Shown: positions 4,592 through 64,000 of the stretch, in pieces
How positions within the stretch are numbered: position 1 is the stretch's first letter
Layout: the number at the start of each line of letters is the position of its first letter
NCBI GenBank assembly: GCA_958009085.1
Contig: OY253687.1
Location: 1-64,000, forward strand
Length of the DNA stretch: 64,000 nt
Direction of reading: 5' to 3'
Source: Protoeuglena noctilucae
Taxonomy: Eukaryota
The notes under the pieces: model-generated
The model's input: the letters and a program-made list of their open reading frames with translations, nothing else
Database searches by the model: none
What the model was told of the DNA's origin: nothing
Program-made: the position numbers and the translations under genes

Positions 4592-7500
4592 ATGCAGGAG
4601 AGTGTCCAGGCTGCCCCCTCCCGCGGGGCCAGCCTGAGGGTCCGGCCGGATGGGGTGGCGATTATCACGCTCTCGAACGGGCCCATGAACGCCCTGCATC
4701 CCGACGGTGAGGTCTTGCGGGTCGCGAGGCCGGCTCTGGTGCTTTAGCTGGGCCCTCTGGCCCGCTGCGCGGACGACCGCGCGGTGCGCGTCCGCTCCCT
4801 AGCCGAGCGCTCGTGATGTCGTTTCCGGAACGCGCTGTCGGATTTTCCAGCACTGTGGCTCCCCGCGCGCGGCGCTGTCGTACTCGGCAAGGCCGTTGGC
4901 GACAGCCACGCCCTCTCCGGAGGCGACCGCGCCGTCCGTGGTTGATTTTCGGATCAAAAAAGCGAAGGGCTGAAAGTTACTGCGATTGATGCTTTCCCTG
5001 GCGCGCGGTGGGTTCCGGAATTCCCAGCTGGGGAGGGCTCGCGAGTTCCGCGTGTCCGGCGCTTCCCGCGCGCCTGTGGTTACGAAACCACCTAGATCGG
5101 GATGCGAGCATGCATGAGCGCCCGCCGCACCGGCGCACCATTCAGCGGAGGGGACGCGCGAGCCCGTGCAGCCCTCGCGGGCCGGGCGAGCCCTCCGGCC
5201 CTCCCATCGCCTCCTGGCGCCGTCATCCCGGGATCCTCCTGTCGCGCAGTGCTTGGTGGTCTTTTCCGCAACCTGGAGGAGGCCCACCGCCGCGCGGACG
5301 TCAAGGCCATCGTCGTCACGGGCGCTGGTCAAAACTTTAGGTGAGCACCGGCCCCGCCTCGCCGGCGCCGCCGTCTCACATCCAAAGCTCGACTCTCAAC
5401 CTGCCGCTTCTTTCCCTGCCCTCAGCGCGGGCTTCGACATCACCCTCTTCAAGGAGGGGTCCGGCAGCGGCGTGGACGGCATCTGGGTGAACCGGGAGCT
5501 GTGCCGGCTCGCCGAGGACGGGCCCAAGCCCGTGGTTGCCGCTATCCGGTGCGTTGGGCACCGTAGCAGAGTGACGCGGGCGCTGCTTGGCCCGAACAGC
5601 CACGGCCACGCGCACCCCCGCACGTCCACACCCGCAGGGGCTTATGCCTGGGCGGCGGTTGCGAGGTGGCCATTTCGTGCTGCGCCCGTGTGGGCACTCC
5701 CTGCACTCGCATCGGCCTCCCCGAGCTGCAGCTGGGCATCATCCCCGGCTTCGGGGGCACCCAGCGCCTGCCTCGCCTGGTGGGCGTGCAGCGCGCCCTG
5801 CCGATGATGCTCACCTCGCAGCCACTCCCCGGGTGAGACTGTCTCAAGAGCGGGAGTTGCAGAATCAGGCACTGCCACCGCTGTCACTGCCGTCGTGCTT
5901 GGACGCTCAATGGCCGTCACCGCCTGTGCTGGTGTGGTCACTGAAGCTGCACCGCTGCCCTCCCCCATTTGCAGCCCCGCGGCCCTCAAGGCGGGCCTCC
6001 TCGACGTCACGTGTTCCCCGTCGGAGCTGGAGGAGCGCGCGGCCCAGGTGGCCCTGGAGACGGCGGAGGGACGCCGCCCGCGCCTGCGCACCCTCAGCCG
6101 CACCGACCGCCTGGAGCCTTATGCGGACGCGCTGCGTGCGATCGAGGCCGCGCGGGTGGCCTCGCAGCGCCAGTCCCCCAACCTCACCCACCCGCTGCTG
6201 TGCCTGGACGCGGTGCGGCGCGCGGTGGAGGTGGGCGGGTGGGCGGGCGTGGCGTACGAGGGGGAAAAGTTCCTCGAGTGCCAGCGCCTGCCCACGCACG
6301 CGGGCCTCGTCCACATCTTCTTCGCCCAGCGCGCCACCAAGCGCGTGCGGGGCGTCACCGACCAGGGCCTCACCCCGAGGGGCTGTCGGTGCGTGGCGGT
6401 GGTGGGGTGCGGCCTCATGGGCAGCGGCATCGCCACGTCGCTGGCGCTGGCCGGGGTGCGCGTGCTGCTGAAGGAGATTAGCGAGCCGCTGCTGGCCGCG
6501 GGGGTGGGCCGCGTGAGGGACAACCTCGCCTCGCGCGTCAAGAAGGGGCGCATGGCCGAGGCCGACGCCAAGAAGGTCATGGGGCTGGTTGAGGTGAGGT
6601 AGTGCATGCGCATGATGAGATGCTTGGCTTCCCACCGCGTGCCTCTGCACCGCCACGTCACCCCACTCGTGCTCGACGGGTCATGCCACACATGTAAGCA
6701 CAACCCATGCACCCCTCTCCCCTCCCCTCTCTCCAGCCCGTGCTGGACTACTCCAAGTTTCGCGACGCCGACATGGCCATCGAGGCCGTCATCGAGAGCA
6801 TCCCGCTGAAGCAGAAGATCTTCGCCGACTTGGACCAGGCGTGCCGCCCCGACTGCGTGCTGGCCACCAACACCAGCACCATCGACATCACCCTCGTGGG
6901 GCAGAAGATCCGGGACCCCACGCGCATCGTGGGCGCGCACTTCTTCTCGCCCGCGCACATCATGCCGCTGCTGGAGATCGTGCGCGCCCCCGACACGCCG
7001 CCCCAGGTGACGACACGCGCAGCACATGGGGACAGGCACACGGGAGCAAGTGCATGCGTGGTGGTAGTGACTGATGATGTGAAAGAGCATGGGATGGGCA
7101 CTGTCACACAGCTGCAGACAGGCATGCGCACTGTGCCACCGCTTGCGTGTGACCCTGACCGCATCGTGACCGTGTCCACCCTGCTCCCCGTCCAGGTGGT
7201 GTTGGAGGTGATGGAGATGGCGTCCAAGATCCACAAGACTCCCGTGGTGGTGGGCAACTGCACGGGGTTCGCCGTCAACCGCGTCTTCTTCCCCTACACC
7301 ATGGCTGCCTGCATGCTGGTCGACGCGGGTGAGGGAGAGATGGGAGGGGTGTTGTGTGCATGCTGGTCGACGCGGGTGAGATGGAAGCAAGGGGTGGTGC
7401 ATGACATGACACGCCACACCATACCATCTCACTGCCCCGCTTGGCCCATCCATCTCCATCCCATCCCCACACTCGCACCCACCGCCTCACGCGCACCCCA

Positions 7501-8657
7501 TTCCCCCCCATCCCCCCAGGCCTGGACCCATGGTCGGTGGACGCGGCCGTGTGGCGCTTCGGCATGCCCATGGGCCCCTTCCGCCTCAGTGACTTGGTGG
7601 GGGGGGACATCGGACTGCACGTGGCGCAGAGCTACCTGGGGGCATTCCCCGACCGCGTCTACAAGGGGGCGCTCATCCCTCTCATGAACGAGGCCAAGCG
7701 ACTGGGGGAGAAGACGGGGGGAGGGTTCTACAAGTGAGATGGGGGGTGTGCATGTGCATGTGCATGGGACAGAGGGGGATGCACAACCTTAATGAGGTAA
7801 TGCGTGGGAGCGTAGCTCGTTGACAAAAGAGCAGTCAGATAAATGAATGACCCCACCCCAATACCCCGTCGTCCCCTCCCCCCCCCTCAGCTTCGGGGAG
7901 GGCCGCGGTGCCGGCAAGCCCGCGATCGCGGAGGTGTCGCCCCTTCTGGCCAAGAGCCGCGCCGCGTCGGGGCTGGAGGGCCGTGCCAGGTCCGCCGTGT
8001 CTGGCGCGGATGACGTGGTGGAGACGGTGCTGTTCCCGGTGGTGAACGAGGGGTGCAGGGTCATCGCGGAGGTGAGGGGGGGTTGACGTTGCGAGAGGCG
8101 ATTGCCTTCTCATGACTTCTGCCTCCCCACTCACGTCGCGCAACCACCCTCGCACCCCTCCACACCTTACCATCACCCTCGCACCACTACCCCCTCCCCC
8201 AACGCAGGGCATGGTGGACAAGCCCGCGGACCTGGACGTGGCGTGCGTGCTGGGCATGGGCTTCCCCTCCTACCGCGGCGGCCTCATTCACTGGGCAGAC
8301 CACGTGGGGGCAGCACGCATCGCGGCCAAGCTCAACAAGGCAAGGGGTGGTGTTGCGATGATCGCCGTGTTTGTCGATGCAGTCCTTGCATGTCGACAAT
8401 GGTGCTTACGTGCCATCCCCGTCTTGTCTGCCGTCATGCACTCGCGCACCCATCCATGTCCGCACCCCTCACGCTGCGCTCATCTGCCCGTGCCTCCCAC
8501 ATCACTCTCTCCCTCTCCATCCCCGCAGCTGGCCGAGGTGTTCCCCGAGCACGCCGGCTTCTTCCGCCCATGCGAGTACCTGGCCAGCGCGGCGCAGACG
8601 GGGAGGCCACTCTCGGCGGGGGCGGGGCAGGGGGCGGCACTCGCAGCGCGACTGTGA
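4592..8657 (+). CDS. Peroxisomal fatty-acid beta-oxidation multifunctional protein (enoyl-CoA hydratase / 3-hydroxyacyl-CoA dehydrogenase; AIM1/MFP2 family)
   Basis: Hydratase motifs [10 protein letters not shown] and [23 protein letters not shown]; Rossmann [46 protein letters not shown]-terminal PTS1 -ARL before the stop. Confidence 0.95.
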
Positions 8658-8892: not shown

Positions 8893-11544
8893 CTACTCGC
8901 TCTCGTACCCACGGTTGCCACGCCCAGAGAAGCCCCCCTGCCGACCCCGCGCCTCCCCCCAAGCGCCCCATCCCTGCTCGCGCTCGCGCCCGAACGGCGT
9001 GACCCTCGCTCCCCACCGCCCCCCCTCCGGCTTCCCAAACGCCCCCTCGCTCTTGGGCCCAGACCCGAACCCACCCCGGGACCCAAAGCCGCCCTTGCGC
9101 CTATCGCCAAATGCAGAAGAGCCACCCCCCCGGCCTCCGAACCCACCCCTCCCGCCAGCCCCTCCGAACCTCCTCTCTCCCCCGTACCCGCCCCTCTCCC
9201 GCTCCTCCCACGGCCGCCCGCCCCTCCCATCACGGCCATCCAGCGACACCTCGTCCGCCCCCAGCTCCGTGGGGCGCGTCACCGTCACGCCCCCCTCCCC
9301 CGCCGCCTCCGCCGCCGCCACCGCCGCCGCCTGCGCCTCTGGCATGTCCACGAGCGCCACGTCATCGCTGACCAGGTGCACGCGGCCCAGCACGTCCGCG
9401 GCCGAGTTGTGGCCACGCCGGCGCAGCCACCCCGCCACGGCGCCCACGGACCGCCCCGCCCCGCGCCCCTCCAGCCGCAGCGTCACGTGGCCCGGCTGCA
9501 TGCCCAGCAGTGACCGCACCCGGGGCAGCTCCCGCAGACCTGACATGGACGCCAGTGCGCGGCTCATCGCCTCCTCGGCGCCCATCGCGCGCACCGCCGC
9601 CTCCGCTTCCGCCCGGAACAGCGCCGCCACCTCCGCGGGGGCGTCCGACAGCCGCTGCCTCAGATCCTCTGCCGTGGCTGCCACCACGCGCGCGGGGTCG
9701 GGCGCCCCCACGGTCGCGTAGGGCGTGCCCGTCTCGCGCATCAGGCGGGCCACGGCGCCACGCTCGCGGGGGGTGTACATGACGATGGCTGCGGGGAGAG
9801 AGAGGGATGGGGCGTTGAGGCAGGGGAACAGACGCCGCGCCGAGACCGTGACGCTGTCCGCCGCCCATCGCCCCAACCGCAGCCGTGGCCCATGCATGCA
9901 GCGTCTGCATCACCCCCACCCGCTCACCCGTGCCCTTGTTCCCTGCCCGCCCCGTGCGCCCCGACCGGTGCAGGAACGTCTCCTGGTCCCCCGGCAGGTC
10001 ATAGTGCACCACCAGGTCGACGTGGGGGATGTCGAGGCCGCGGGCAGCCACGTCCGTCGCCACCAGCACGCGCGCCTGGCCGGACCGGAACGCCCCCAGC
10101 GCCTTCTCCCTCCCGGACTGGCTGATGTCGCCGTGTAGTGCCTCGCTGGGGTGCGTGCCCGCCACGGCCGCCGCCACCTCGTCCGCCTCGCGCTTGGTCT
10201 GGCAGAACACCACGGCCTTGCCACGGGGGGCGTAGACGCTGATGAGGTCGGGCAGCAGCGACCGCTTCTCCCCCGGGGGCACGGGTGCCGCCAGCACCGT
10301 CACCCCGTCCGCCACGCGCCCCGCCCCCTCCTCTCCCACCAGGTCCACGGTGGTGGGGCTGCGGAGGTACGTGGTCGCCAGGCGCCGCACCCACGCGGGC
10401 AGCGTGGCCGAGAAGAGCATCGTCTGCCGCCCCTCGGACGGCATGCGCTGCAGGATCCAGTCCATGTCGTCGCGGAACCCCATGTCCAGCATCATGTCGG
10501 ACTCGTCGAGCACCAGGAAGCCGCACTCGCGCAGGTTCAGCGCGCCGCGCTCCACCAGGTCCATCACGCGCCCGGGCGTGCCCACCACCAGGTCAGACCC
10601 ACGGCGCAGGGCCGCCACCTGCGGGCCGGTCGCGGCGCCGCCGTACACCGTCACGCACCGCGTGTGGGGCGCCGACTGCTCGATCTCCCGCTCCACCTGC
10701 GACGCCAGCTCCCGCGTCGGGCACAGCACCAGGCAGCGGGGAGCGTCCCCGGGGGACTGGCGGCCGGGGGGGCGCTCTGCGTGGGGAGAGGGAACGGGCG
10801 TGTCATGAGAGGCGGCAGACGGCAGCGGGACAAGCAGAGCAAGCAGCCACGCCGTGAGGGTGGGCATGCCATGCTGCGAGGGTCCGCGGGCGACCTGGCC
10901 GTGCGTGAGCGAAAGCGGGGCAGGTCGCTTGCCATGTTCCCGCCCCTCACCCTTGAGCAGCTTCTCGAGGATGGGGATGGCGAACGCGAGGGTCTTGCCC
11001 GACCCCGTCTTGGCCCGTGCCACGATGTCGCGTCCCTCGAGCGCGGGGGCCAGGCACGCGGCCTGGATGGGGAAGAGGCGCGTGATGCCACGCGAGCGCA
11101 GGGCCTTGACCGTCACCTCCGACAGCGCCGCCTCCTCCAGGGGCCGCGAGTCGTCGTCGGCATCGGCATCGCCCGTTGCGACAGCTGGGGATGGGAGGGC
11201 GAGGGCGTGCGTGAGCATCCCGCGTCGGGGGCGACCGAGCAGCCTGCGCGCTCGCAGATCGCGGACTCACGCACAGCGCTGAGGGAGCGTTGGAACGTCG
11301 AGCTCAGGCGGGAGGTCGCGGGGGTCGCGACGTGAGTCAGCAGCCACTCGGGGGCGGGTCGTCCGGCAAGGGCCCGAAGGGAGGGAGCGGCGGCCTGAGA
11401 GAAACGCAAAAGTATATGTTTGACAGTCAGAGCGAGGAAGGGACGCACGAGGACAGCGCTGGCGCGCGCGACGGGCCTTGCCTGGGTGCCCCGCCAGAGA
11501 TGCAGCGCGGCGCCCCACAAGAGACGCGAGCGGGAGCGCCCCAT
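8893..11544 (-). CDS. Organellar DEAD-box RNA helicase (RH3/RH9/RH53-like) with GUCT-like region and RGG tail
   Basis: Q motif LFPIQ, AKTGSGKT, PTRELA, GTPGR, DESD, FSAT, LVATDVAARGLD, HRSGRTGRAG; Gly/Arg/Phe-rich tail. Start codon uncertain. Confidence 0.92.
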
Positions 11545-12299: not shown

Positions 12300-12571
12300 G
12301 GTTAGGGTTAGGTTAGGTTAGGCAGGTAGGTTAGGGTCAGGGTTAGGATTAGGTTAGGATTAGGGTCAGGGCAGGGTTAGGGTTTGGGTTAGGGTAGGGT
12401 TAGGGTAGGGTTAGGGTTAGGGTTAGGGTTAGGGTTAGGGTTAGGGTTAGGGTTAGGGTTAGGGTTAGGGTTAGGGTTAGGGTTAGGGTTAGGGTTAGGG
12501 TTAGGGTTAGGGTTAGGGTTAGGGTTAGGGTTAGGGTTAGGGTTAGGGTTAGGGTTAGGGTTAGGGTAGGG
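12300..12571 (+). repeat. Telomeric (TTAGGG)n array with degenerate proximal units
   Basis: Variant units (TTAGG, TCAGGG, TTAGGA, GTAGGG, TTTGGG) to about 12410, then pure TTAGGG up to the N gap. The G-rich strand points toward the contig end. Confidence 0.95.
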
Positions 12572-12771
12572 NNNNNNNNNNNNNNNNNNNNNNNNNNNNN
12601 NNNNNNNNNNNNNNNNNNNNNNNNNNNNNNNNNNNNNNNNNNNNNNNNNNNNNNNNNNNNNNNNNNNNNNNNNNNNNNNNNNNNNNNNNNNNNNNNNNNN
12701 NNNNNNNNNNNNNNNNNNNNNNNNNNNNNNNNNNNNNNNNNNNNNNNNNNNNNNNNNNNNNNNNNNNNNNN
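12572..12771. other. Assembly gap (200 N)
   Basis: Run of 200 N; same length as the second gap, so probably a scaffolding placeholder. Confidence 0.98.
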
Positions 12772-14607: not shown

Positions 14608-17600
14608 ATGAGCCAGAGACCGACGCACCCGACGGCCAACTGGGCCCCGACGCCCGACGAGCACGACGCCGCAGATGGAGCCCGCGACACGCTGCACAAG
14701 GACACGGGTGGGGCGCGCGAGGCTCTTTCCGCATCTCATGCATGTCCCGGTCACCCCGCATGCGCGCGGGGCCGCTGCGCGGCGACTAAGCGCGCCTGTC
14801 CGCCCCCCGCGCAGGCACGGCCCTCGGGACCGCGCCGCTGCCCGCGAGCGGGTCGGAGGCCAAGGTTCGGAACTCGCAGCACGAGGAATCTGCAATCCAC
14901 TCGTCCTCCGGGTGAGCGGCCCGCACGGCGGCCGGGCCGGGCGGCGGCAACGGCGCCCCCAACTGCACACTTGTTGCGCGACCCCGCGCTCGTCCACTTC
15001 GCCTCTCGCAGAGAGTCGGACCAAATGGAGTCGCGGGACCATTTGGAGGACCTGCCGACGGTGGTTCGGCGGCAGCGGCGGAGGGGTGCGGGGGCCAGCT
15101 CTGGGCGGGTGCGCGTGGCCCCAGAGAGCCTGAGCAACTACGGCGCTGCGCTGGCGGCGGACGTGGCGGTGGCTGCGGCGTCGGTTGGCGCCCGCCGCGC
15201 CTACCCCCCCGTGGAGATCCCCCCCGCGGAGTCCCCTTCCGCTTCCGGCTCCGACACGGCCAGCGTGCCCTCCCGGTCCGTGGGCGCATCCGTGGGGGCG
15301 TCCGTGGGCGCGAGGGCCGCCCCCTCCGCCGCCGACGTGCGCGGCCGCGACGACGCCGCCGGCCGCGGCTACCTCCCGTCCATCCAGGAGTGGTCGCGGC
15401 GTGCAAGCGACTCGGGGCGTGCGGACATGGGTCCCCGGCGGGAGTCGAACGGCGGCATGGCTTCCGGCGCGTCGTCGTCCATGCTGGCCCCGACGGGACT
15501 GGGGATGCTCCCGGCCGGCATCTACCTGCCTGCGATGGAGGAGAGCGGGTCCCCCCCACGCACGCGCGCGGGTGACCGCGAGCGTGAACGTGACAGGGAG
15601 AGAGAGAGGGAGAGGGACACGCGGCGGGCGAGGGGGGGCAGGAACGAGCGTCCTCGTGGCGCGGGGGACGGCGCGGGCGCGCGTGGCAGCCCGGAGGAGG
15701 TGTCGCAGCGTGCAGTCGATCCCATGAAGAGCATGTCCATGCGGTACGCCAGGATCGGGGCGGGGGCGGGGGGTGACGGCGCGGGTGGTGCGGGCCGCGG
15801 GCGTGGGAGCGACGAGGGCCGGGGGGGTGCCGCTGTTGGCGGTGCGCGCCCGCTCTTGTCCCCCTCCTCCACCACGGCAGGCGCGGCGTCGACTCCCCAG
15901 GCTGAGCTGGCGAGTCGCCTGTTGATCCCGGCCGAGTCGATCGAGATCGACATGGCGGTGCCGGAGCTGGGCAGGGGGGGCTTCGCAGTGGTGCGACGCG
16001 GCAAGTACCGCCCCAACATGCGGGGCCCGGCCAAGGACGTTGCTGTAAAGATCTACACGAGTGACCGGTCGCTGACCCAGGCGCAGCTGCGGGAAGAGGT
16101 GGTGAAGTTCCTCGACGTGGTGCTGCACTGCACGCACGTGGCCAAGATGTACGGGTTCACGCAGGTGAGGGGGTGGGGCATTGCGCATCGTGCTGTGAGG
16201 GGTGGGGTGGGGTGTGAGGGGTGATGTGAGGGTGCTGTAAGGGCGGGGGGGGGGGGGGTTGAACAGGCTCTGTGCGTGGTTGGGATAGGGTGGGAAGGGG
16301 CCAAATGGGCTGCGGTGGCAACTGCCGCCCCCCAACACTCCGCTCCCTCTCTCATGGTATCCCTGATGTCGTATAATTTTCAAGCTTAATCATAACTCTC
16401 TCTCCCTCCGCCCCCAGTTCCCCGAGGGCCACTCCTTCCCCGGCAGCGCCATCGTGATGCACCTGTACCCCCAAGACCTGCGGCAGTATTTGAAGCGGCA
16501 CGCCCCGGACCCACCAGCCGTCGAGGAGGCACTGCGCATCGCCATGGAGATGGCCTGGTGAGATGTATGGGAGATGGCATGCATGAGTGACGACGGAGGG
16601 GGGTATGTATGGTATCATGGCATGCATGTGTGATATGTGTGATGACGGAGTGAGGGGGTGTAAGATAGATAGTACTATGAGATGCCCCTTCCATGTTCTA
16701 CCCACACTCATCACACCGCAACCACACCACCACCACCAACCAACCCCCTCCCCCCCCCATCCCCACCCCCCCAGGGGCCTCCAGTCCATCCACGAGGAGC
16801 TGGGCGCAGCACATTCCGACCTCAAGCCCCAGAACGTGCTGCTGGACCACAAGCTGGGGGTGCACATCAGCGACTTCGGCGCACTGAAGGCGCTCGGCAG
16901 CGACAAGCAGGTGGCGGTGGAGGCGTATACGCTGGCCTACTGCGCCCCGGAGCAGGCGGAGGAGCAGGGGGGGCTGCTGTCCACGGCCAGCGACGTGTGG
17001 GCGCTGGGGTACATCGCGGTGGAGCTGCTGGTGGGGCGGAGGGCGTGGAAACCACGACAAGCGCCGGACTGGGACGCTTTGCCCGCCCACGTCCCCCGCG
17101 ACCTGGTGGACACGCTCAAGCAGTGCTTCCACTTCGAGCCCGACCGGCGCTGCACGGCGCGCGACGTGGCGGAGGCGCTTGAGGAGGCGCTGAGGGCCGC
17201 GCACGGCAACCCGCGGCTGCAATTGCCGGCGCAGATGCCGTCGGGGCTGAAGGCCTTCTGGAAGGCGGAGGTGAAGGGAGGGGGAGATGGGGGTGGCTGG
17301 GGGCAAGCTCTCACCCACTCACTGACACACACTCACTCCCCCCCATCGATCGCAGCTCTCCTCCGACACGGACCGCGTCCCCTGGGACACCTTCCGCACC
17401 GCCCTGCGCCGCCTGGCCCTGAGCCGCCCCAAGGTCTCCACGGTGCTGGACCGGGCCAACGAGGCGGTGGTCGCGGCGCTGCAGCGGATGCGGGTCGTGG
17501 TGCGGAGCGCGCACAAGAAGGACCCCTTCCTGGGTGAGATATGAGAATAGAGGGGTGATGGAGTGATGTGTGGGAAGAGAACAAGAAGGACCCCTTCCTG

Positions 17601-29438: not shown

Positions 29439-29915
29439 GATCGTTCCGCGCCCCGGGCTCGCGGGACGCGAGGACTACCCCTGCAAAGCGCGCACAGCGT
29501 GTCAATCGCGGAGGCCCTCACGCTGCGCGATTTCACGCTCAGATGCCAGGCAGCGAGCACGCGCATACCTGTCGAGGAGAGCGGACGAGCGCGCCGGCTC
29601 GCGACCGGCGCCGCGCGCCACGGCAGTCCCGCAACCGATGTGCAGAGCAAACCCAGTCGCTACACGCGTCTCGCGCAGGCTTCTATCTTTCCGCAGCTCC
29701 GTGACTGCCTGCCAATTTTGTGCCATGCGGGGGTAGGCTGGGGCAACGTCTCGGTAGGCCAAGCGAGCGCCAGACTGGCACCGGCGCCGCAGGACCGCTG
29801 CAGGAAGCCTGGCTGTCGCTCGAAATCATCTCATCTCGGCAGCGTCGGCGCCCTCAATAGACGTAGCATCGTAGGCCGATCGCGGGCCTCCCAGCGATTG
29901 CGTGTCCGCGTCGCC

Positions 29916-43604: not shown

Positions 43605-44030
43605 GCTCCCCGTCGACTGGCGCGGCGGCGTGCCGGGCGGGTCGTCCGTCCGGTCGCTCCGCCCGGACATGGGCCAGGGTGGTGTCGTGGCTGCGGGCGG
43701 GCGGACGCGGATCGGGGGCGCGACGGGTGCGGTTTGCAGCTGCGATTCGTCACATGGTGCGTCCCGATGCCGAGCTGGGCTCTATCCGCTCGCAGGTTGC
43801 GACAACTGGCGTCCCACTGGCGCGTCGCTCCTGGTCGTTCAATCGATTCACTGCCGCGTCCACATATTGGGTCAACTCGATCCGCCGAGTCACACGCTTA
43901 GCAGCACTGCTGCTTCTTGGTGCATGCTGCCCATCCTTGACATAGGTGAAGCAACTGCAGTGCTGCTGAGAGGCTGCCCCAGTTTGTCACAGTGTCTCCC
44001 TCACTGCAGCCGCGTCAAGCTGCCACCCCA

Positions 44031-47000: not shown

Positions 47001-47050
47001 GCCCTGGAGGACGCCAGGCGCGCCAGGATGCCAACGGCGTGGCGCGACAT
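44031..47050 (-). CDS. gcvT: Mitochondrial glycine cleavage system T protein (aminomethyltransferase)
   Basis: [88 protein letters not shown]; mitochondrial-type presequence. Confidence 0.97.
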
Positions 47051-47560
47051 CTTCCCGGTTCAAAATGCAGGAGCGCGGACCGCGAGAGGCGCGATGGGGG
47101 ACCCTCGGGGGCGATGCGTCGTCCGGAGCGGCTGATTGGCCGCGTTGCGATGTGGGGCGGGGCAGGCGCCCCGCGTGTCCTCGAGCCGGCTGCGAACGTG
47201 CTGGGCTGGCAGTTGCAGCACAGGGCGCGGCGACAGCGCATGCGACAAACAAGGCAAGATTCGTGTACAATGCGTCAAGCCTGCATCGGTTGGCCTGTTT
47301 GCCGTGCGCCATCGAGCGCTGAGATGGCGCATTGAGCGTTTGTCATCGTTGCTGCGAAAATGCCGCGAGGGTGCCCCAGCCGCGTGTGCGCGTTATGCAG
47401 GAGCCATGCCTCGCTCGGGAGGATGGCCCGCGGTTTCGCGGAACGGCCCTCCCGGGACCCCAGGGCCACACCAAGCGCTGCGGTGCGTGGAGGCCCCCCA
47501 CCGGTTCCCTGCCTGCGTCGATGTCCGATATCTTGGTCTGACTGCGATGGGAGCGATTGC

Positions 47561-53382: not shown

Positions 53383-53563
53383 GATAGGAGGTGCGGGTGG
53401 GGGTTGAGGGATAGATAGGTGGAGGGATGACGGACTGAGGTCGTCGCTTTGTGCCCGTAATGAGAGGTGGGGTTTGAAAGTCATCAATGGTTTCGCTGAA
53501 ATTCAAATATCGTCACATTGACTAATGCCAGCCATATCAATCACTTCGCCCAGCCGTGCCCCG

Positions 53564-55258
53564 TCACATGTCGTATAGCTCTGGCCGCTCCTGGATGCCC
53601 ATCCCCGCCATCAGCTTCTTTTTGCTCATCTTGCGACCCACTGCGGGGGAATAGAGAATTAATCAAACAATCACACACACACTAGTCATCCACTCTTACA
53701 ACCCCACCCACCCCACCCCACCACTCTCCCCACTACCCTCACCTGCGTTTTTCACCACACGTCCCCCCTTGACCCCCACCCCCGTTCCTGCCTTGCCCCC
53801 CCTTCCCTTTCCCCCCTTCGCCCCCCCCTCGTCGCCCCTTGCGTTGGCAGTGCCGGGTTTGACCTCCCCCCTCTTAATGGCCGCCTCCCAGGCCAGTCGG
53901 TGGCGGTGGTAGAGATACAGGGCTGGGGGGGGAGAGGTTAAGAGAGGTGGGGGTATAAACGACAGACCTTTGTATAGTACTATCTGTCTCCACAGTCGAC
54001 ACAGCCATGGACAAACGGCCATATAACCACACCAATATCTATACAACCACATATCATTACAACCAAATATATTCACACTCACACCCAAACACCCACCCGT
54101 CCATCACTCACCGCACCGCGCATCCTCCACCGGCGAATGCGACCCCGACTGAATGCTCAGCCCCAGCACCTCCTCAGACAATGCTCGCAAACTCCTGGGC
54201 CTGGGTTTGCCCTCTTTTCCCTCCGATGCGGGATCGGTCATGAGTGGGGGGTAGCATGCGGTGTCGCGTGTGAGGTGGGGGGGGTGCGTGAGCTGCAGGG
54301 CTTTGAAGTCGTTGTGCACGGCGTGGCCCACCACCACGCGGCCGCGAAGGAGGTCCGCGACGCGCTCACGGACCTTGCTGGGAGCACGAAATGGGTGGGT
54401 GTGGGTGGGTGTTGGGGGGTTAAGGTGATATAGGAGCACCCTAGAAGAGGGTGGGGCAAGATCAGCACAGGTGGGGTGGTGATGGGGACGCAGAGAGCAG
54501 TGGAACGCCACCCTGGTTGATTGGGATGCACACAAGCACAGCGAAAGAGAGAGAGGGGATCTGCGGCACCCGCAACACCAGCCCTCGTCCCCCCACGGCA
54601 CGTAGCACATCACGCAGCACGTTCCCCCCTCACGTCACACGTGCTCTTACCGGAAGGGCGGTGCGTCCCGCAGGTCCCTGGGCCGCAGTCCGCTGAACCG
54701 CGTGCGATAATCGGTGATGCGACGCTCGGGGCGGCACTTCTCATCCAGCAACACGTGACCCTCGTTGTTAACCACCACCACGTGTGCCAGCGCGCTCGTC
54801 TTCTCGGGGCCCACGCCGACCATCTCACAATCGATCGCGACCACGCGAGTCGGACCCGCAGAGTCGCCGACCGGGCCGGGCGCGGCGGGGGCGGGCGGGG
54901 CTGCAACGTCCGACCCTCCCCCGCCCGCATGCTTGGCGGTCTTGCGGCGCTTCTGGGCGCCGGAGTGGGACGGCAGCTGCGCGCGGAGGGCCTTCCAGTT
55001 CGCGTCGCCCGCGCGAACGGGGCCGGGGGCCGCAGCGGGGCCCGCCGCGCGCGGGGGGCGGGTTACAGACGCGTCCCCGTCTGCTTGCCGCCCCGACGGG
55101 CCCGCCTCGCCGCCCCTCGCGGAATCCGGACGCGACCGCGACCGCTTTCGCTTCTTGAGACGCGGATCCCCGTCCGCATCCGCCCTGCCGCGGCGCGGGG
55201 CGGCTGCGGCGGCACCGGCGGCCGGGACGCCGCCCCTGCTCCGCCCGCCCGACGCCAT
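53564..55258 (-). CDS. REX4: RNA exonuclease 4 (DEDDh)
   Basis: NWKAL, VVAIDCEMVGVG, ITDYRTRFSG, VVVGHAVHNDFKAL, RDTA, IQSGSHSPVEDAR. Confidence 0.93.
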
Positions 55259-55804
55259 CGCGGGACCTGCGGGAGGCGTGCACACACGACAGAGCTAAGG
55301 GGATGCTCGCGCGCTTCATCGCGCAGCTTGGCGCTGTGAGGAGCACGGGAGAGACGGAACAGTGGCACGCTGTAGGGTTCGAAGGCCATGCGCGCCCCGG
55401 GGCGATCGAGAAAGCGCTACTCACGAGCCGCTCGATGCTTTCAAGCTTCGAGTAGCCGATGATGTCGTCGCGGGGTGCCGAGAGCGACCCTCTTCGCCAA
55501 TCGTTGCGTGCGAAGCGCGAGCGGTGCGCTGGATGCTGCAGGAGGCGCGAGGGCAGCTGCAAGCACACCGCGGCTATTCCAGTATGCTGATACATGCAGT
55601 GCCACTCGGGCGCTTGCCCAATGACCCCGCGTCGGCCTGCCCGACCGCGGTCATCCCCCACTGGCGGACTTTCCTGGCGCCCCGGTTCATTCGGACGACC
55701 GGCGCGGCGCCGCTGCCCATTGCTTACTTTCGTGCGGGCAAGCGGAGAGCCTCGTCGCTGGATGGGGACCGGCGCGCAGGTTTGAATTCGCTGCCCTCAC
55801 GACC

Positions 55805-58800
55805 ATGGCGCAGAAGCGCAGGCCCGCGGCCGCGGCGCGCCACGCCGCGTCGTCTGCGGATGCCGAGACGTCGAAGCGACCGCGGAGGGACGCGGCGGAC
55901 GCCGCTAAGACCGAGGAAATTTTAAGTGAAGGTGGGTCGCCAGGTGGCCCCGACCCGGGCTCCCTGGGGGCTCTCGGCCGTGGCCCCCGATCGGATGCGT
56001 CGCGAATAGTTGCATAGTACTCGTTGGGATGGCCCCGCGGTCCAGACCATCCCTTCCCGCGACGCGGCTCGGGCTTTTCGCCACCTCCTGTGTTCGTTGG
56101 CGGGAGGGCCCGCGGCGATCGCCGATGGGCTTCCTGCGACCACGATGAATGCATGCGCTCAGCCGCTTGTTGGATCATGCCTCGGAGGCGCCCCCGGCCG
56201 GGCGGCAGGGCGGCACGCGCCCATCCCCACGCAGCCGCTCTGGGGGGCGCCCAGCGCTCATCCGGGCCTTCGCTGTCCTCAGCCGCACCGCAGCAGACCA
56301 CTGGATATCGATAGCAGTAATCTCTGACTCCTCCCGCCCTTCCGCGCGGTACCCCGCCCTCGGGCGGGGGCGCTCCACAACGCGGAGGCCGCGGGGCCCC
56401 GCGCCGCCCGCCCCCGCGCCCGTGCGGCCTCGCATTGCGTTTGCGCGCTCAGTTTTTTGCCGCACTTTTTCTTGCAGACCCCATCGGTGCGCTCTGATCA
56501 CCCCAGCGCGCCCCGTCCCGCCCTGTTGCAAGCTGCTTTCCCTCGCCCGATTTCGCCCGCAGTGAACGGTCGGAAGCGCCGCGCGGCCGAGCGGAGCTAC
56601 AAGGAGTCCCCGGTGCACATCCGGGAGGACCGCATCGCGGTGGTGGAGGTCCCCGTGGCCGAGACGGAGGCCGATGCCATTGCCGAGGTGCGGATGTGCA
56701 CCGCGAATCTATAGCTATGCGCATGCGGGGCATGGGGCATGGAATGAGGCGAGGCGAGACATGTATCTGATGGATGCAGTTGACCCACGCTACGCCAGCT
56801 TTAGCAGCCCTCGCCGTCCACTCACCTCCACACAGCACCTCGCTCCCATCACACCCACGTCCCACCCACCTGCGCCCCACAGCCGATGCCACCCCCACCA
56901 CCGCTTGCCACCCCACCCTCTCTCCTCATATCCATCATAACTCATCCCGCAGACGGGCGGCGCCCCAGCATCTGGCCCTGCCATCCGTCGCCTCGTGGAT
57001 TTCCGCATCGCCGATGCCGCCGGCGCCCCCCTCCCCGTCGAGTGCGTCGACACCGGTTCTGACACAAACTCTGACAAGCACTCTGGCGCTGACGTCAGGC
57101 TGTCCGGCTGCGTGTACCCCGCCGCGGGGCAGCTGTCCAAGGGATCCGGGCGCCGCGTGGCGTCCCTGGATCGAATCCTGGGGTGGGAAGTGCGTTTCGG
57201 GAAACCGGCGCCCGTGCTGGTCATCCGCACGGCCCTGGGGGAGTACGAGTGCGGGAAGCCCGAGGCGCGGTACCGCAAGGTGAAAGGGAGTGGGGTGGTG
57301 GTGGGAGTTGAGGCGGGGGTGTGCTGGTGCGGGGTTGCTGGTGTGCATGGATGGGGGTGTTGGTGGAGGGGATGGGCGAGGGTGCTGAGTGGGTGCAGAC
57401 CAACGTCATCAACTCTACTCCTCATCTCTCTCCCCTTCCCTCCCCACCCACGCAGGTCTTCGACTCTTTCATGGAGCAAGCCACGCTTGCCAACGAGGTC
57501 GCCCTGGCCCTCCTGCCCCCCCTGGGCGGCACCCTCAGCGCGCCCCTGGATTCCGTGCTTGCGGCCGTAGCACGTTCCGGCACAGCACGATCCTACGCCT
57601 CGTCCCGCCAGGCCCTGCAGCTCAACGCCACCTTCGTCGTCGCTCAGCTGGACAAGGCAGCTGCCAGAATGGAGGTGTCGTTCCGGAAGTGCCCGGCTTA
57701 CAAGGAGATCGCGGAGATGGGGACGGGGCTGGGGTACAGGGTCGAGGGGGCGGGGGGAGGGGTGCGCATTGCGGAGGGGGGGGAGAGGGAGAAGCCCAAG
57801 ACGGGTGAGGGATGGGAGTGAAGGGGATTGGGCTGAGTGGGGTGTGCGTGTGGCTGTGTGAGTGCGTGTGCATGAGTATGCAAGAGAGTGAGTGAGTGCG
57901 TGTCCCAGTGTCTGAGAGTAAGTGGCTGTGTAAGGGCTTGAAGTAGTTAACAGCAACGTGACCATCCACTATATCTATTCCCCATCCGCAGACCAGGAGC
58001 GGATGGACATGGAGATGGCGCTGCGTCTGGATGCAAAGCTCAACGGGGCGGGGCAGACGGGGCGCAAGGGGGGCAAGGGGGGGAAGCATGCCGACGCGTA
58101 CCTGCAGGTGAGGGGTGGGGAGTGGGGGTGGGGTGGGTGGTGTTGCAGCTGTCGGCCCTGCTTACTCTGAGCCATGCTATCTCGTCTTTGCACCCTCACT
58201 GCCACCCTCACTGCCAACCTCACTGCCAACCTCACTGCCACCCTCACCCTCATAACCCATCTCACTATTTCTTCGTATGCAGGTGGAGTGGTCCGAGGTG
58301 GCCCCCTACTACCCCACCCCCGGGCAGTACAACGGCGTGGAGGGGGTGGAGGAGATGGATGAGCTGCTCACCGTTTGCGAGGAGGACTACGCGGGTCTGG
58401 ACGCCTCTCACTTCCCCAGGCGGCTCATGAGGAACTTCCACATCTACGACGCAGAGAGGGTCACGGGTGAGGGGATAGGATATGAGCATCACGATCACTA
58501 ATACTATATTATCGTACTGCACTGTGTTATCACGCCACCCCACTCCCACACACCAGTCCACCTCACCACCCCACACCACCCCACCTCACCACCCCACACG
58601 AACCCCACCCCACCTCACCTCGCCCCCCGCAGCTGCCCTAGAGTTGGCCCCCATGTCTGGCGGCATCGACTCTGCGGTCGAGTTATTCCTTTCTGGCGAT
58701 TTCATCGAGGAGGATGGGACATGGGAGATGGCAGGGCAGGCGGTGGGGGGAGAGGGGGCGGAGGGGGGGGATACTGATGAGGGGGCGGAGGAGGGGGGGA

Positions 58801-61800
58801 GTGGTGGGAGTGGGAGTGGTGGGAGTGGCAGTGGGAGCGGGAGTGGTGCTGGCAGTGGCAGTGGGAGTGGTGGCAGTGGCAGCGGTGCTGGCAGTGGGAG
58901 CGGTGCGGGCAGCGGGAGCGGGAGTGGTGCGGAGGGTGAGTGGCAACATGGCATGGCATGAGGGCTTGCAAATTGCAGTGCATGCGCCTGTGTACATGCA
59001 GTTGTGCCGCACAACTCAACCCCTGCTTCCACCCTCACTGCCACCCTCACCACCGTTACTCCCACCCCCACTGCCACCCTCACTCCCCACTCACCCCACC
59101 CACTCACCCCCACCCCACCCCTCCCCCCCAGCCCCTTCCACTGCCCCCGGCTCCTTCGGCGTCCGCGTCTTCACCACCCCCGTCCGCGAGGGGATGGTGG
59201 AGCTGTCATCGGACACGCTCTTCATCAGCGCACGCACCGACTTTGCGTGGTACCGACTGGTGGACCCGCTGCCGGACTACGCGCCCTTCTTCGAACAGGC
59301 GAGAGGGGATGTACTGTTATCATTGAGAAATGTACATGTGATGTCTATGAGTTGGTGATGTGTTGTGACCCTCTCGGGGACTACCAGCCCTTCGAGCAGG
59401 CGAGATGGGGATGTACTGTTACTGGCTATGTTTAGCTGTGCAATCGACACTGTTTGTATGGATAGATTTACTGTCATCGCTGGTTTGCGCTCTCCCATAC
59501 ATGGACTCTTCGCTCGCCTCTCACCCTCTCACCCCACCTCACCAATCCCCTCACCCACCTCCCCCCCCAGGTCGTCAAGGCCTCCCGCGTGGGTGCCCAC
59601 CTCCTCACCGCCCTGGCCGAGCAGTCCCGCGCCTCCCGCCTGTCACTGCCGGATGCCGTGCGCGCCCTCGCATCGCAACCCACCACCTCCCCCCTGCACA
59701 TCAGCCGGCGCGTGAATGAGGTCGAGCGGTACCTGGCCGTGCACGGGCAGGTGCTGCTGGGCATCCTGTCCCGGTTCCCCAATCGTGCTGTGAGCCAGGC
59801 GCCGCTGCTTCGTGCTCTGCGCGACCACATGGCCACGTGCCGCCACCACAAGGTGTTCGCCAGAGCGGATCGTGCCGCGACGCGCAAAGCACGTACCGCC
59901 AACCCCATGACGGACCGGCTGGCGGGGCAGAGGCGGCCCATGGAGGCCACGGCGACGAGATTGGTGCGGGGGGTGTACCAGGTGAGATTGGGGGATTGGG
60001 ATTTGAATGGGGATAGAGTTGGAAAGTGTGGGGGGTGTACCAGGTGAGATTGAGATTGTGGGGAACTGGGATTTGAATGAAGATGGAGTGGGATGGAGTG
60101 AAGGGCATGTACCAGATGAGATGGGGAGAGAGGGGTAGATGGGGTAGTGAGGTGTGAGAGGTGTGAAGGGGGGGGTGAGAGTTGCAGAGGGGTGTACCTG
60201 GTGGAGTGAGCATGCGGAGCGGGAATCACTAGCTATAGAAGGCAATGATGGGCTCTTTATTTATCTACAGCTAGTAACCATATCATCCCCATCATCCCCC
60301 CCAGGAGTACTTCCACCGCCGCTTCAAGTACGACAAAGAGGGCAGGGCAGCCGAGGCAGTGGCACCCGCCGCTCTCAAAGACGAAGACAACGACGACGAC
60401 GAAAAGGACCAGGGGGACCAGGAGGTCGGGGGTTCGAACCCCGCCGCTGACGGCGCCGTTTCCGGAGTGGACGGTGCGCTGGGGGAGGAGGAGGCGGAGG
60501 TGGATGCTGATTTGGAGGACAGGGATTTGGATGCGGCGGTGGAGGATGTGGGATTCGCGGGGGTGACGAGGGCGCGGAGGGGGCGCATGGGGGCGAGGGC
60601 GGCGGGGGAGGTGAGGTGGTGTGGGGGGTATGTGGGGGTGGTATGTGGGGTGAGGGTTGGTGGTTGATATCTGGGCGTTCACTATCTGGGCGTTTCTCTA
60701 CTTCAAGTGTTTTTCAGTATCGCTCAGCACACCACCACCTCTCGTCTGTTGCTACCACCACCACCCCCCTCCGCCCTCCCTCATCACCCCAACTCACCCA
60801 TTCATTCACCTCCCTTCCCCCCCCCCCAGGTCGCCGAGCTGACTGGCACCCCCATTCAATACGACGACGTGCTCTACTGGCCATCCGTGCAACTTATCAC
60901 TTCCAACATCACGGTCAAGCCCGGTGACGTGGTGGCATTCGACATGGATGCTATCATCAAAGAGATCGATGAGAGGGGCAAGAAGGGCAAGGGGAAGGGG
61001 GATAAGGGGGAAAAGGATGAGGGGGTGGAGGGGGAGGGGGTGGGGGTGGTGCAGTGTCTGGTGGAGAGGGGGGGGCGTGCGGTGGCGCAAGTGCGGGTGC
61101 TGTGGGGGGGAGAAGAGACGGGTGAGGGGGAGAGGGGGTGTGGGGGTGTTGGGGTGTGGGTTTGGAAGCGTTGGTATGAGAAATGGATGGGTGTTCAGTT
61201 GTTGGATTGACTGGTGTTGGATTAACTGGTTGATTGACTGATGGGTGATTGGTGCGACGCATGATGGATGGGTCGATGGCATCATGGTACATGGACTGAT
61301 GACTGATATCAGTAATATCAGTAATAAAACCTCGATATAACAACTACTGAACTACTCACCCCTTCTCTCTGTCCCTTCAGTGCTGGGCGATGCGGCCCCC
61401 TCCTCGGAGCTCTTCCTCACGGAGCTCTCCCACCTCGTCCCCGCCTCCGCCCTCACCCCATGCCCCCACATTACGAGAGATGAGCGGCCGTGGGGGCCGG
61501 GAGCGCGGCTGGCGGCTTATGAGGAGGGGGTAAGGAGGGAGAGGGAGAACGCCGACAGGGAGAGGAGGGGGGAGGTGCGGCAGTGGACGTACAGGTGAGG
61601 GCTGCAGGGGGGGAGTGGAGTTGTATTTGTAATAAGTGGTGTGGGGTGTGTTGGTTGCAAGTGGTGAGAGGGAGAGGAGGGGGGAGGAGCGGCAGTGGAC
61701 GTACAGGTGAGAGCTGCAAGGGGCCAGTGGGGTTGTATGGGGTGACATGGTAGTTAGATGTGATATAATAATCATTTTGTAATAACACTGTCATCTTGTT

Positions 61801-64000
61801 ATTATACAACTGTTATAAATTAAGTTTTGACAGCTTTCTAGATTTGTGGTAATATTACGAACATTCCTCCCCCCCCTTGTGCTCTCCCAGGCGCCTGTAC
61901 ATCCCCCAGGAGGGCATGTTCTGCGACCTGCCCTCGGACCTGGGCAGCGGTCGCTGGTACTCACAGCACGACCGCAGTGAGAAGAAGCCGGAAGTGGTGG
62001 AGAGGGAGGGGGGGGTGGTGATTATCGCAGGGGGGACCGAGGTGAGGGGATGGCGGGGGGGGTTGGGTCATGGTGGCTGGTGGGTGTAGTGGTGATGGTG
62101 GTTTTCTTGTTATGTGACACTTACTATTTGGTAATACCGATTTTGTGATTTGTATCACCGACATCACGTATCACATATCATCACTCATTCCCTCACTCTC
62201 CCTCGCCCTTTCAGATCTCCCCCAGTGACTTCGCGTGCTTCATCACATATCATCTCACATGTCATCACTAACTCATTCCTTCTCCTTCTATCTCCCCCCT
62301 TCAGATCTCCCCCGGTGACTTCGCCTACGTCAAGTGCAGCGCCTTCCCCCCCGAGCCCCTGGCCCGCGACACCCGGGAGCGACCCTCTTATGTCAAATCC
62401 GCAAAGGGGGAGCTGCAGGGAGTCGATGCCTGGCACGTGGTGCGGGTGGTGGAGGTGGTGGGGAAAGAGAAAGCGACACGAGTGAAAGTGGTGCGCTACT
62501 TGCGGCCGGAGGAGGTGTCGAGGGAGCTGAGGTGAGGGAGTGGGGATATAGTTGCGGGGTTGTTATTATATCGATAGTAATGATCAATAGTAATGATAGT
62601 GAATGGAGAGCTGGTGCGCTACCTGAGGCCGGAGGAGGTGTCGCGGGAGCTGAGGTTAGAGGGTGAAGGTGGAGGACGCAGTGGGGTAGCAGCGCTGGCA
62701 AGGTTACTCATTCATAAAGTTACTATAACTATTACAGCTATGCATTGCTCTTGCACTCATCTCCCACCCAGGCACTCCCGCCCGTACCGCGAGGTCTTCT
62801 CGTCGCGCCTCACCGCCACCGTCCCCGTCAGCGCCCTCGTGCGCCGGTGCTTCGTCTGCCCTCCCGGCACCGACACGCGCCATCTGGACGTCTTTATCTG
62901 CGAGAAGCGGTATCTGGGGGTGAAGGGAGGCGTGGAGGTGGAGAGGGGCGCTGCTAAGGGTGGCGGCAAGGGCGCGGCCAAGGGCAAGGGCGGGAGGGGT
63001 GGCAAGAAGGGCAATGGGGCGGATAAGGGCGGGAAGGGAGGTGCGGATAAGACGGTTAACAACGGTGGCGAGGGAGGCAGCGCGGAGGGAGCGGTGACGA
63101 ACGCCAGTGGCCGTCCCACCCGCGGCAAGCGCGTGCGCTATGCCGAGTTGGACGGTAGCAGCGATGGCGGCAGCGACGATGATTATGAGGATGAGGGGGT
63201 GGTGATGGAGGGCGATGCGGGTGTGGAGGTGGAGGGGGGTGAGCCTGTGTTTGAGGAGGCGGGGGAGGGGGACGTGGGGGCGGTGGAGGAAGGGGCCCTG
63301 TGGGAGGGGAGCGTGGTGCCGGCACACGACGCGTTAGACGGTGAGTGGGGGGTGAATGGGGGTGTGTAAGTGGGGATGAGGTTGTATTGGTGGGTGTGGA
63401 AGTGTGGGTGCGGTTGTCGGTGTGGGTGTGGGTGTGGGTGTTGCAACTGTAATTTCCCTCACCACCGCTCATCCCCTCCCCCAGAGCCCCGCCGCCTGCG
63501 TACCCTGGACATCTTTGCCGGCTGCGGGGGTCTGAGCGAGGGCATGCACCAGGCGGGGGCCTGCGTGACGAAATGGGCGATCGAGTATGAGAGGCCGGCC
63601 GCAGAGGCGTTCAAGCTCAACAACCCGGATGCGCACGTGTTCTGCGACAACTGCAACGTGGTGCTGCTCAAGGCCATGGAGAAGGCGGGGCAGGTGAGAG
63701 TGGCAGTTTAGAGTGGCAGTCAAGGGTGATAGTAGTAATGTTACATACTCACTGCATACTCATGACAATCGATCAAAACTGCTTCGCCCTTTCCCACCCG
63801 CTCTTCCAACACCTCTCACCCCGTCCCTCACCCCACCTCCCTCACCCTCCACCCCCCTCTCTCAGATGTCCGACTGCTTCGCCCCCCCCGACAACCTCAC
63901 CGCCGCCTCCGCCTTCCCCGCTTCCGATTTCGATGCCCTGCCCCTCCCCGGTCAAGTCGACTTCATCTGCGGCGGCCCCCCCTGCCAGGGCTACTCGGGC
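55805..64000 (+). CDS. MET1: DNA (cytosine-5) methyltransferase MET1/DNMT1, 3' end beyond the window
   Basis: Two RFD-like segments (RRLVDF; RRLMRNF...RTDFAWYRL), ATATRLV, two BAH-like segments ([14 protein letters not shown]), motif [20 protein letters not shown] and motif [16 protein letters not shown]. Confidence 0.96.

Follow-up and report, generated by a model that had tools for sequence, protein, structure and literature searches.

The window analysed here is a 64-kb stretch of nuclear DNA of Protoeuglena noctilucae (positions 1 to 64,000 of contig OY253687.1), in which roughly a fifth of the introns contain decaying copies of the edge of the exon that they adjoin. Such a copy inside an intron is called an echo below, and the copy that is contiguous with the exon is called the master. 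The window belongs to an intron-rich eukaryote, has a guanine-plus-cytosine (GC) content of 0.56-0.73 along its length and is interrupted by two scaffold gaps of 200 N. The nearest named relatives of its DEAD-box helicase are those of green algae, namely Pedinophyceae sp. (64%), Elliptochloris (63%) and Chlorella (61%); a protein-atlas search returned helicase clusters from bacteria only.

Gene models were built with a small hidden Markov model (HMM) of codon bias and then curated by hand. They comprise 16 loci and 101 introns of 40-700 nucleotides (nt), amounting to 21,777 nt of intron DNA, and the coding signal is strong, the third codon positions of exons having a GC content of about 0.8-0.97. 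The exon borders of two genes, GcvT and IF2, were also checked against the intronless orthologues of a relative that is represented by metagenome contigs. The donor consensus is GTGAG, with GT in 90 introns, GC in 10 and GG in a single one, a hand-set IF2 border that is apparently one base off, and the acceptor of the introns modelled is CAG. By comparison with these 10 GC donors among 101, a proportion of about 60% is quoted for Emiliania huxleyi in PMC4028052.

Read on the sense strand, the introns (7329-7519, for instance) have a marked polarity: GTGAG is followed by a G/T-rich and C-poor first third, often by an AT-rich middle, and then by a C-rich and G-poor last third, in which CTCAC-like words, reminiscent of a branch site, precede the CAG. 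The median exon measures 167 nt, about the length of one nucleosome.

Exon-edge copies in the adjoining introns

An earlier note on this DNA had claimed that about 20 introns in 6 genes contain extra copies of the flanking exon edge, and all of the 22 sets that it listed were located. The local alignment score is at least 17 in 21 of them; the remaining one, 59274/59379, is weak, with 22 aligned nt, 1 gap and a score of 15.5 or 13.5 in two runs, the control maximum being 11 for that query. One further set (49184/49263) was found beyond that list. The sets are the following, with the identity of each echo to its master in brackets.

7310-7380 (+), MFP donor: master 7310-7333, including GTGAG; echo 7357-7380 (24/24), after a 23-nt spacer free of C
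17513-17709 (+), NLR/kinase donor: master 17513-17538; echoes 17581-17606 (26/26) and 17687-17709 (91%)
17953-18223 (+), NLR donor: master 17953-17980; echoes 18040-18067 (93%, with a GC donor), 18117-18145 (83%) and 18202-18223 (86%)
19864-20121 (+), NLR donor: master 19864-19897; echoes 19962-19995 (97%) and 20095-20121 (27/27); the spacers ahead of both echoes have a 16-nt block in common
21569-21740 (+), NLR donor: master 21569-21594; echoes 21638-21663 (96%) and 21726-21740 (15/15, no donor)
22204-22327 (+), NLR acceptor: echo 22204-22244 (90%, with its own CAG); master 22287-22327; 51-nt spacer with 2% G
40346-40503 (-), UKL acceptor: master 40346-40362; echoes 40408-40424 (17/17) and 40486-40503 (94%); the units share 16 nt past the echo
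40823-41001 (-), UKL donor: master 40974-41001; echoes 40907-40934 (89%) and 40823-40851 (86%)
41789-41979 (-), UKL donor: master 41912-41979; echo 41789-41856 (66/68), the longest of all
44261-44412 (-), GcvT donor: master 44368-44412; echo 44306-44350 (96%); weak third copy 44261-44283; exon borders set by the relative's intronless orthologue
45033-45148 (-), GcvT donor: master 45117-45148, which stops 3 nt before the exon end; echo 45033-45064 (94%), lacking a donor behind it
45253-45366 (-), GcvT acceptor: master 45253-45293; echo 45326-45366 (85%, with its own TTGCAG)
49184-49290 (+), IF2 donor, the additional set: master 49184-49211; echo 49263-49290 (86%)
49679-49854 (+), IF2 donor: master 49679-49732; echo 49801-49854 (52/54), which gives a second matching segment against the IF2 protein of the relative
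50169-50318 (+), IF2 acceptor: echo 50169-50207 (79%); master 50280-50318
50447-50602 (+), IF2 donor: master 50447-50477, which stops 14 nt before the exon end; echo 50572-50602 (87%)
51104-51252 (+), IF2 donor: master 51104-51144, which stops 13 nt before the exon end; echo 51212-51252 (39/41), with unrelated sequence after it
52054-52419 (+), IF2 donor: master 52054-52089; echoes 52180-52213, 52283-52318 and 52387-52419 (94-97%); about 30 nt of upstream spacer are common to the first and third echoes
59289-59412 (+), MET1 donor, weak: master 59289-59310; echo 59390-59412 (95%, 1 gap, with a GC donor)
59964-60126 (+), MET1 donor: master 59964-59990; echoes 60026-60052 (96%) and 60108-60126 (89%); spacers homologous
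61554-61718 (+), MET1 donor: master 61554-61606; echo 61666-61718 (94%); similarity continues for about 30 nt into the intron
62203-62332 (+), MET1 acceptor: echo 62203-62242 (85%); master 62293-62332; each copy is preceded by a pyrimidine tract, and by eye the two tracts seem related
62489-62665 (+), MET1 donor: master 62489-62542; echo 62612-62665 (89%), its donor changed to GTTAG

Altogether 22 introns are affected, distributed over NLR (5 of 15), UKL (3 of 8), GcvT (3 of 7), IF2 (6 of 12), MET1 (4 of 17) and MFP (1 of 9), and none of the 33 introns of the remaining loci carries an echo. This apparent clustering in few genes is suggestive only, as a chi-square over all genes gives p = 0.11 and the Fisher value of 4e-5 was obtained on a post hoc grouping.

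The copies also emerge from a scan that ignores the gene models. Among 35 pairs of direct repeats of at least 18 nt lying 25-450 nt apart, 26 include a copied exon edge; low-complexity arrays make up 7 more, which leaves 2 of another kind. When 60 nt of each exon edge plus 8 nt of intron are aligned to their own intron and to the 100 other introns, 17 donor and 4 acceptor edges, together 21 of the 202 junction sides, score at least 18, whereas the controls peak at 17.5 in 20,200 comparisons; 27 of the 202 sides outscore all 100 of their own controls, against about 2 expected by chance. In reverse complement, exon edges gave no copy within their own introns (0/202), and the intron on the exon's other side yielded none either (0/174). 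A further scan of 660 windows yielded 19 pairs, among which there is no complex intron-internal duplicate unrelated to an exon edge. The copies are thus always direct and always within the adjoining intron, and their enrichment stands far above every control, be it other introns, intron interiors, the wrong side or the inverted orientation. The idea of a systematic process tied to splice junctions is borne out by these comparisons.

That the echoes could be an artefact of assembly or of haplotype merging is so improbable as to be negligible, even though the window is a scaffold with two gaps. Exact open reading frames (ORFs) spanning echoes occur on other public contigs, which come from two sources: the MFP set is spanned on 13 contigs, and the NLR acceptor set at 22204 on 5, plus 7 on which the ORF has another start. 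An independent metagenome run contains 0.96 of the sampled words of 44000-53999, a stretch of which echo arrays make up about a tenth by our own tally; two metatranscriptome runs contain 0.29 and 0.22 of these words, close to the exon share as tallied from the exon models. Moreover, copies differ from their masters and have unique flanks, and an artefact would not respect splice junctions. In an exact look-up of 10 echo-spanning ORFs, the 8 left unmatched are uninformative, since gene callers may choose other starts.

Boundaries, splice signals and decay of the copies

In the 21 donor echoes aligned with their masters, identity along the diagonal is 0.92 at positions -20 to -11 and 0.85 at -5 to -1, falls to 0.73 at 0 to 4 and to 0.48 at 5 to 9, and reaches background from about +10. 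Random pairs of real intron starts have an identity of 0.80 at 0 to 4 and of 0.34 at 5 to 9. As unrelated intron starts are already 0.80 alike at 0 to 4, the copy ends at the junction to within the consensus. The outer border of the donor echoes is variable, lying from -15 to -63 in the exon. Acceptor echoes mirror the donor profile (5 cases).

The copies had been said to carry the splice site as a rule. This is correct for most of them, a donor-like site following 22 of 28 donor-side copies and a CAG preceding all 7 acceptor-side copies, and incorrect for the other 6 donor-side copies, which stop 2-14 nt inside the exon and are followed by unrelated sequence. Judged by a position weight matrix, the copied donors would be near-perfect decoys, as had been proposed: their median score is 10.0, compared with 10.1 for masters, the 99th percentile of intronic GT/GC sites is 8.9, and each of the 22 exceeds the 10th percentile reached by real donors. 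Splicing at the decoy is predicted to shift the reading frame or to run into a stop codon in all but one of the 22 cases, and it is only in the NLR set at 17953 that it would stay in frame without a stop (87 nt). In general, a donor is reinforced by G-rich sequence downstream of it.

The HMM itself took an echo for a micro-exon three times. Three echoes with an AG before and a strong donor after (17578-17601, 44314-44331 and 52302-52307) might, as in the output of the HMM, be taken up by splicing as micro-exons (24, 18 and 6 nt, all in frame) that repeat the preceding residues. A run of about 25 G (52410-52432) directly follows the third echo of the IF2 set at 52054, and the donor GT of this echo has been lost within the run.

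Echo and exon differ by 53 mismatches over 784 aligned exon-part sites, distributed over codon positions 1, 2 and 3 as 14/261, 10/262 and 29/261 (p = 0.002). From the excess at third positions it follows that silent sites of the exon copy have changed too since duplication. Both copies drift, and nothing homogenises or refreshes the echo; gene conversion as a process keeping echoes identical is rejected on this same codon-position pattern. Many of the changes are at CpG, as judged by reading the alignments. The neutral divergence estimated from the echoes is about 5% per copy, and in most introns with several copies the one nearest to the exon is the most similar to it.

The proposal that the process lengthens introns is supported as well. 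Introns with echoes have a median length of 262 nt, compared with 179 nt for the others (p = 2e-5), and once the arrays are subtracted their median is 150 nt and the excess is gone (p = 0.16). Echo arrays account for 10.9% of the intron DNA examined.

The spacers between copies measure 17-100 nt and have internal short repeats. Those on the donor side contain 7% C, the corresponding zone of other introns having 17.3% and the sequence past the last echo 15.5%, and those on the acceptor side contain 2-7% G. A purging of C to T as the source of the C-poor spacers is rejected: C sites in donor echoes do change about three times as often as G sites (0.098 compared with 0.029), which is far too little to erase homology. 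Filler made by telomerase is also rejected, with 6 telomere-type hexamers compared with 8.2 expected.

The earlier note had described these spacers as unrelated, which is true of 17 of the 21 consecutive pairs, whose similarity is at the null level even when gapped alignment is included, and fails for the other 4. The null pairs include sets in which the exon parts are 24/24 or 26/26 identical. At a divergence of about 5% per copy, spacers that had been duplicated should still be about 90% identical, and this is the principal reason for holding that most spacers were never homologous. Similarity exceeds that of all controls in the NLR set at 19864 (0/117) and in the MET1 set at 59964 (0/169), and is marginal for two more. 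Between one echo and another, the flanking spacer is also shared, which shows that arrays grow by duplication of a spacer-plus-echo unit as well.

Within the 64 kb the spacers form no family, the maximum spacer-to-spacer score of 12.5 being that of the background. Of the 5,050 possible pairs of introns only 6 score at least 25, all of them through one array of a 12-nt repeat. Arrays of this unit (CCACCCTCACTG type, sense strand) occur in the UKL introns at 41110-41437 and 42125-42312 and in the MET1 introns at 58108-58282 and 58804-59131, that is, in two unrelated genes, and are the only intron-to-intron similarity of the window.

Origin of the copies

The reading that we prefer, at chances that we put a little short of even, is that the echoes are neutral, decaying scars of a recurrent and error-prone break repair, which would add filler and duplicate its target, and which is anchored at intron ends. 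The signature of such repair is found in the window: two direct copies of the flank enclose an insert without relation to them, and copies in any other orientation are absent. In the primary event, 15-70 nt of exon edge would be rewritten directly, 25-130 nt inside the adjoining intron and usually through the splice-site consensus, and the copies would be parted by new, strand-skewed filler, G/T/A-rich and C-poor at donors and C/T/A-rich and G-poor at acceptors. The exon-contiguous copy would stay the working splice site, the inner copy would turn intronic, and repeated events would drive older copies deeper, some arrays growing afterwards by unit duplication. The most likely source would be the error-prone repair of breaks at the borders of the G-rich or C-rich intron tracts: end joining or synthesis-dependent repair could fill in or re-copy the flank, such that the target is duplicated and filler is added, and selection would purge the outcomes that damage the outer copy of exon and splice site. 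We infer breaks and their repair as the cause, together with a positional cue at the junction, which might be an exon-phased nucleosome's edge, an R-loop border lying over the G-rich beginning of the intron or a feature coupled to splicing.

The earlier statement that no described mechanism with this signature is known goes too far. Transformants of Ostreococcus tauri, a marine green alga, document break repair that adds filler and duplicates its target directly: inserts of 55-83 bp of unknown origin are described there, and also a direct duplication of the integration site (PMC8002553). The resemblance lies in the succession of target copy, insert of unknown origin (17-100 nt here) and target copy, in direct orientation and in a green alga. 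However, the Ostreococcus events follow transformation or are isolated scars at arbitrary sites, and involve larger duplications, whereas those of the window are of 15-70 nt, recurrent and anchored at junctions. It is for this anchoring that the statement stands, as no precedent was found: a full-text literature search returned single-locus analogues and general models, and no report of pervasive exon-edge copies in introns. The pervasive anchoring of duplicate-plus-filler events at splice junctions thus seems to be what is new here, the repair scars themselves being already known.

Several results weigh against repair as the origin of the echoes. The mechanism is read from geometry, neither breaks nor repair intermediates nor polymorphic alleles having been seen, and all counts come from 64 kb and from the gene models built here. 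In 13 of 17 cases the filler does not appear to be templated from its own intron; it is not telomerase-like either and, at 17-100 nt, is long for end-joining filler. With respect to templated insertion by polymerase theta, the echo itself is a nearby copy, and the first spacer matches the rest of its own intron better than all controls in 4 of 17 cases in direct and 1 of 17 in inverted orientation, a comparison whose power is limited by low complexity. Canonical G-quadruplex motifs are not enriched (5 of 22 echo introns, 14 of 79 others), which gives no support to a break driven by such structures. The donor-side copies that stop inside the exon are not predicted by a simple staggered-cut fill-in geometry, and in the NLR set at 21569 the exon part is perfect from echo to echo and the shared spacer only about 74% identical, which neither drift nor unit duplication explains. 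A few sets, moreover, look like ordinary tandem duplications (MET1 59964 and 61554, NLR 19864 and, by eye, MET1 62203).

Finally, purely intronic events would be neutral and, by a rough count, should outnumber junction events, yet none is seen; a positional cue beyond random breaks and selection is therefore required. Junctions might be hot spots of rearrangement, positioned by splicing or transcription or by exon-phased chromatin, where RNA:DNA hybrids or stalled complexes, for example, would provoke staggered breaks, the exon edge being written anew and skewed filler added in the course of their repair. This more specific proposal appears to us rather doubtful. If it were true, intron growth would proceed inward from both ends, with spare splice sites arising all the time. 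This would be a driver of intron expansion that has so far gone unrecognised, and perhaps also of the turnover of splice sites and the gain of introns, in a lineage that is rich in introns and whose close relative lacks them in the same genes.

Among the rival explanations, ordinary slippage or unequal exchange would duplicate the whole unit of exon edge, donor and intron start head to tail, the spacers then changing too fast to be recognised. A human analogue is known: in intron 7 of F7, a 37-bp minisatellite has its first unit across the exon 7-intron boundary, the repeated donors, although intact, are normally silent, and of these identical sites it is the one furthest upstream that is used (PMC1557585). 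As in F7, the exon edge and the 5' splice site are repeated within the intron, the first unit holds the real site and later copies carry pseudo-sites (22 of 28 here), and by analogy the choice of the most upstream donor could explain how decoys might be tolerated. Slippage also accords with the four spacer pairs above or near the limit of the controls, with the similarity extending into the intron in MET1 61554, with the pyrimidine tracts of MET1 62203, with the spacer flanks common to echo pairs, by which unit duplication does occur, and with the short repeats inside spacers. But F7 is one locus with identical head-to-tail units, whereas at least 22 introns in 6 genes are concerned here, acceptors are included, and full-length homologous head-to-tail units are limited to the minority of sets that look like ordinary tandem duplications. 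Against slippage also stand the 17 null spacer pairs, background similarity where about 90% identity is predicted, and the echoes of IF2 51104 and GcvT 45033, which precede sequence very unlike, in composition, that after the master; Tandem Repeats Finder, run on the window, reports none of the echo sets. We thus hold slippage to be unlikely as the general origin.

More unlikely still is an RNA-guided or splicing-coupled process, in which an RNA:DNA hybrid ends at the splice site, or complementary DNA of an unspliced transcript or of a splicing intermediate is captured nearby. It would account for boundaries that coincide with the junction on donor and acceptor sides alike and for copies that are in sense orientation and in the adjoining intron only; GGTGAG and CTCAC words are also common in introns, by eye, without duplicates there, such that a DNA motif alone is not the cue. 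However, no A-rich tails are seen by eye, inverted captures are absent and nothing in the window points to reverse transcription, and a copy of spliced RNA would run into the next exon and one of unspliced RNA into the intron, neither of which is seen. That the decoys are functional, being kept for U1 recruitment, for enforcement of intron borders or for unproductive splicing with messenger RNA decay, is quite improbable. Their matrix scores equal those of real donors, their use would almost always give the frameshift or stop that a decay-coupled switch needs, and they cluster in few genes under the post hoc grouping; but identity ranges from 100% down to 79%, older copies lose their GT (ATGAG, GGGAG, GGGGG), and mismatches are not confined to silent sites of the echo, a pattern that fits drift in both copies. 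Furthermore, no splicing signal needs 20-60 nt of exon, and six of the 28 donor-side copies are without a junction.

Insertion of a mobile element, introner-like or other, with the spacer as the element and the echo as a long target-site duplication, is very improbable. Introners are said to co-opt a splice site from the target duplication in marine algae (Huff et al., in 2016, reportedly), and the layout of target, insert and target does resemble such a duplication; the two cases also have in common a splice site within the duplicated target, a marine algal host and the growth or gain of introns. But introners form families with short border duplications, and neither is found here: spacers belong to no family and vary in length from 17 to about 100 nt, intron pairs are alike only through the 12-nt array, and no target duplication exists at intron borders beyond the consensus (mean length of the border repeat 2.14 for real introns, 2.19 for shuffled donor-acceptor pairings). 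Inverted copies of the exon edge are absent from its own intron, terminal inverted repeats within spacers not having been searched for. Introners, as transposons creating introns, and transposon-derived introns in general are treated in PMC9860276 and PMC11282704.

Two further models of local duplication come near to the echoes. In the model attributed to Rogers, a copy of the upstream exon end is said to form the 3' end of the new intron, abutting the next exon, and a copy of the start of the downstream exon to stand at its 5' end. Intron gain by tandem duplication of an AGGT-containing exon segment is described in PMC3265369, PMC4974935 and PMC2891723, and likewise a local duplication sets spare splice sites beside real ones, the spare copy being intronic. 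Unlike in the Rogers geometry, the copy lies here 25-130 nt from the donor, has its own donor-like site after it, and the intron continues for another 100-300 nt; donor-edge copies as a whole are found at 25-330 nt from the donor, well away from the acceptor, and each edge is copied on its own side only. Paired nicks in plants reportedly lead to tandem duplications, as Schiml et al. are said to have found in 2016, and duplications made by fill-in or paired nicks abut and are not known to have long unrelated spacers. Fill-in at break ends by Pol alpha-primase/CST gives small tandem duplications (PMC8355091). Both processes resemble the events of the window in producing short direct duplications of tens of bases, and the extracts consulted report no link to splice junctions.

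Under the preferred reading of repair scars, the process adds 50-130 nt at a time to intron ends and leaves near-perfect spare splice sites behind. Intron growth and the origin of splice sites are still argued mostly from single cases, and here 23 dated scars are found in 64 kb. If the anchoring holds genome-wide, it would imply a mutational mechanism that 'knows' exon ends, unexplained by DNA sequence alone. The roughly 22 strong decoy donors in 6 genes would in addition be a natural test bed for the choice of the spliceosome among identical neighbouring sites.

An intronless relative and other features of the window

In the relative known from metagenome contigs, IF2 adjoins GcvT as in the window, and both genes are intronless, compared with 7 introns in GcvT and about 12 in IF2 here. 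Its loci (L001 at 6206-7741 and 9274-10963, L002 and L003) match window positions 44034-53376 with a protein identity of 60-90%, at an even higher GC content of 0.69-0.72. When its GcvT is compared with the metagenome contigs, the 3 closest loci are intronless, and a blastn search of window positions 44000-55800 against all 80 metagenome loci gave no intron-level match. Either massive intron gain in the lineage of the window or massive loss in the relative must have taken place. As the same genes are intronless in a related and more compact alga, the lineage is a promising one in which to watch introns being gained and growing. For pelagophytes, fewer than one intron per gene is reported in bioRxiv 10.1101/2024.10.30.620910, and the density of the window is far higher.

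A protein of a relative (P0001) is unbroken across the position of the echo-bearing NLR intron at 19864, which hints that echo-bearing introns are young, although this protein could stem from a partly spliced transcript. When it is aligned with window positions 19243-20439, this NLR-like ORF has a 39-residue insert, rich in Pro and Ser, where the exon of the window is continuous. The insert resembles an intron that has been read through in frame, at a place where the window has none, and intron positions would then differ between relatives.

A search against Rfam found no family in the window. About 46 copies of GGTTAG, a telomere unit of TTAGGG type, lie at 12300-12571 and abut the 200-N gap at 12572-12771; they represent either telomere-like repeats at an interstitial site or a chromosome end at which the scaffold was joined. 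Just past the second gap, 23067-29500 consists of long C-rich and G-rich low-complexity repeats with a weak coding signal on both strands and no confident gene model. Lastly, three tandem paralogous ORFs (36198-36556, 37221-37913 and 38630-39523) have an N-terminal block of about 70 residues in common, are assigned to no family and, unlike the neighbouring genes, have few or no introns.

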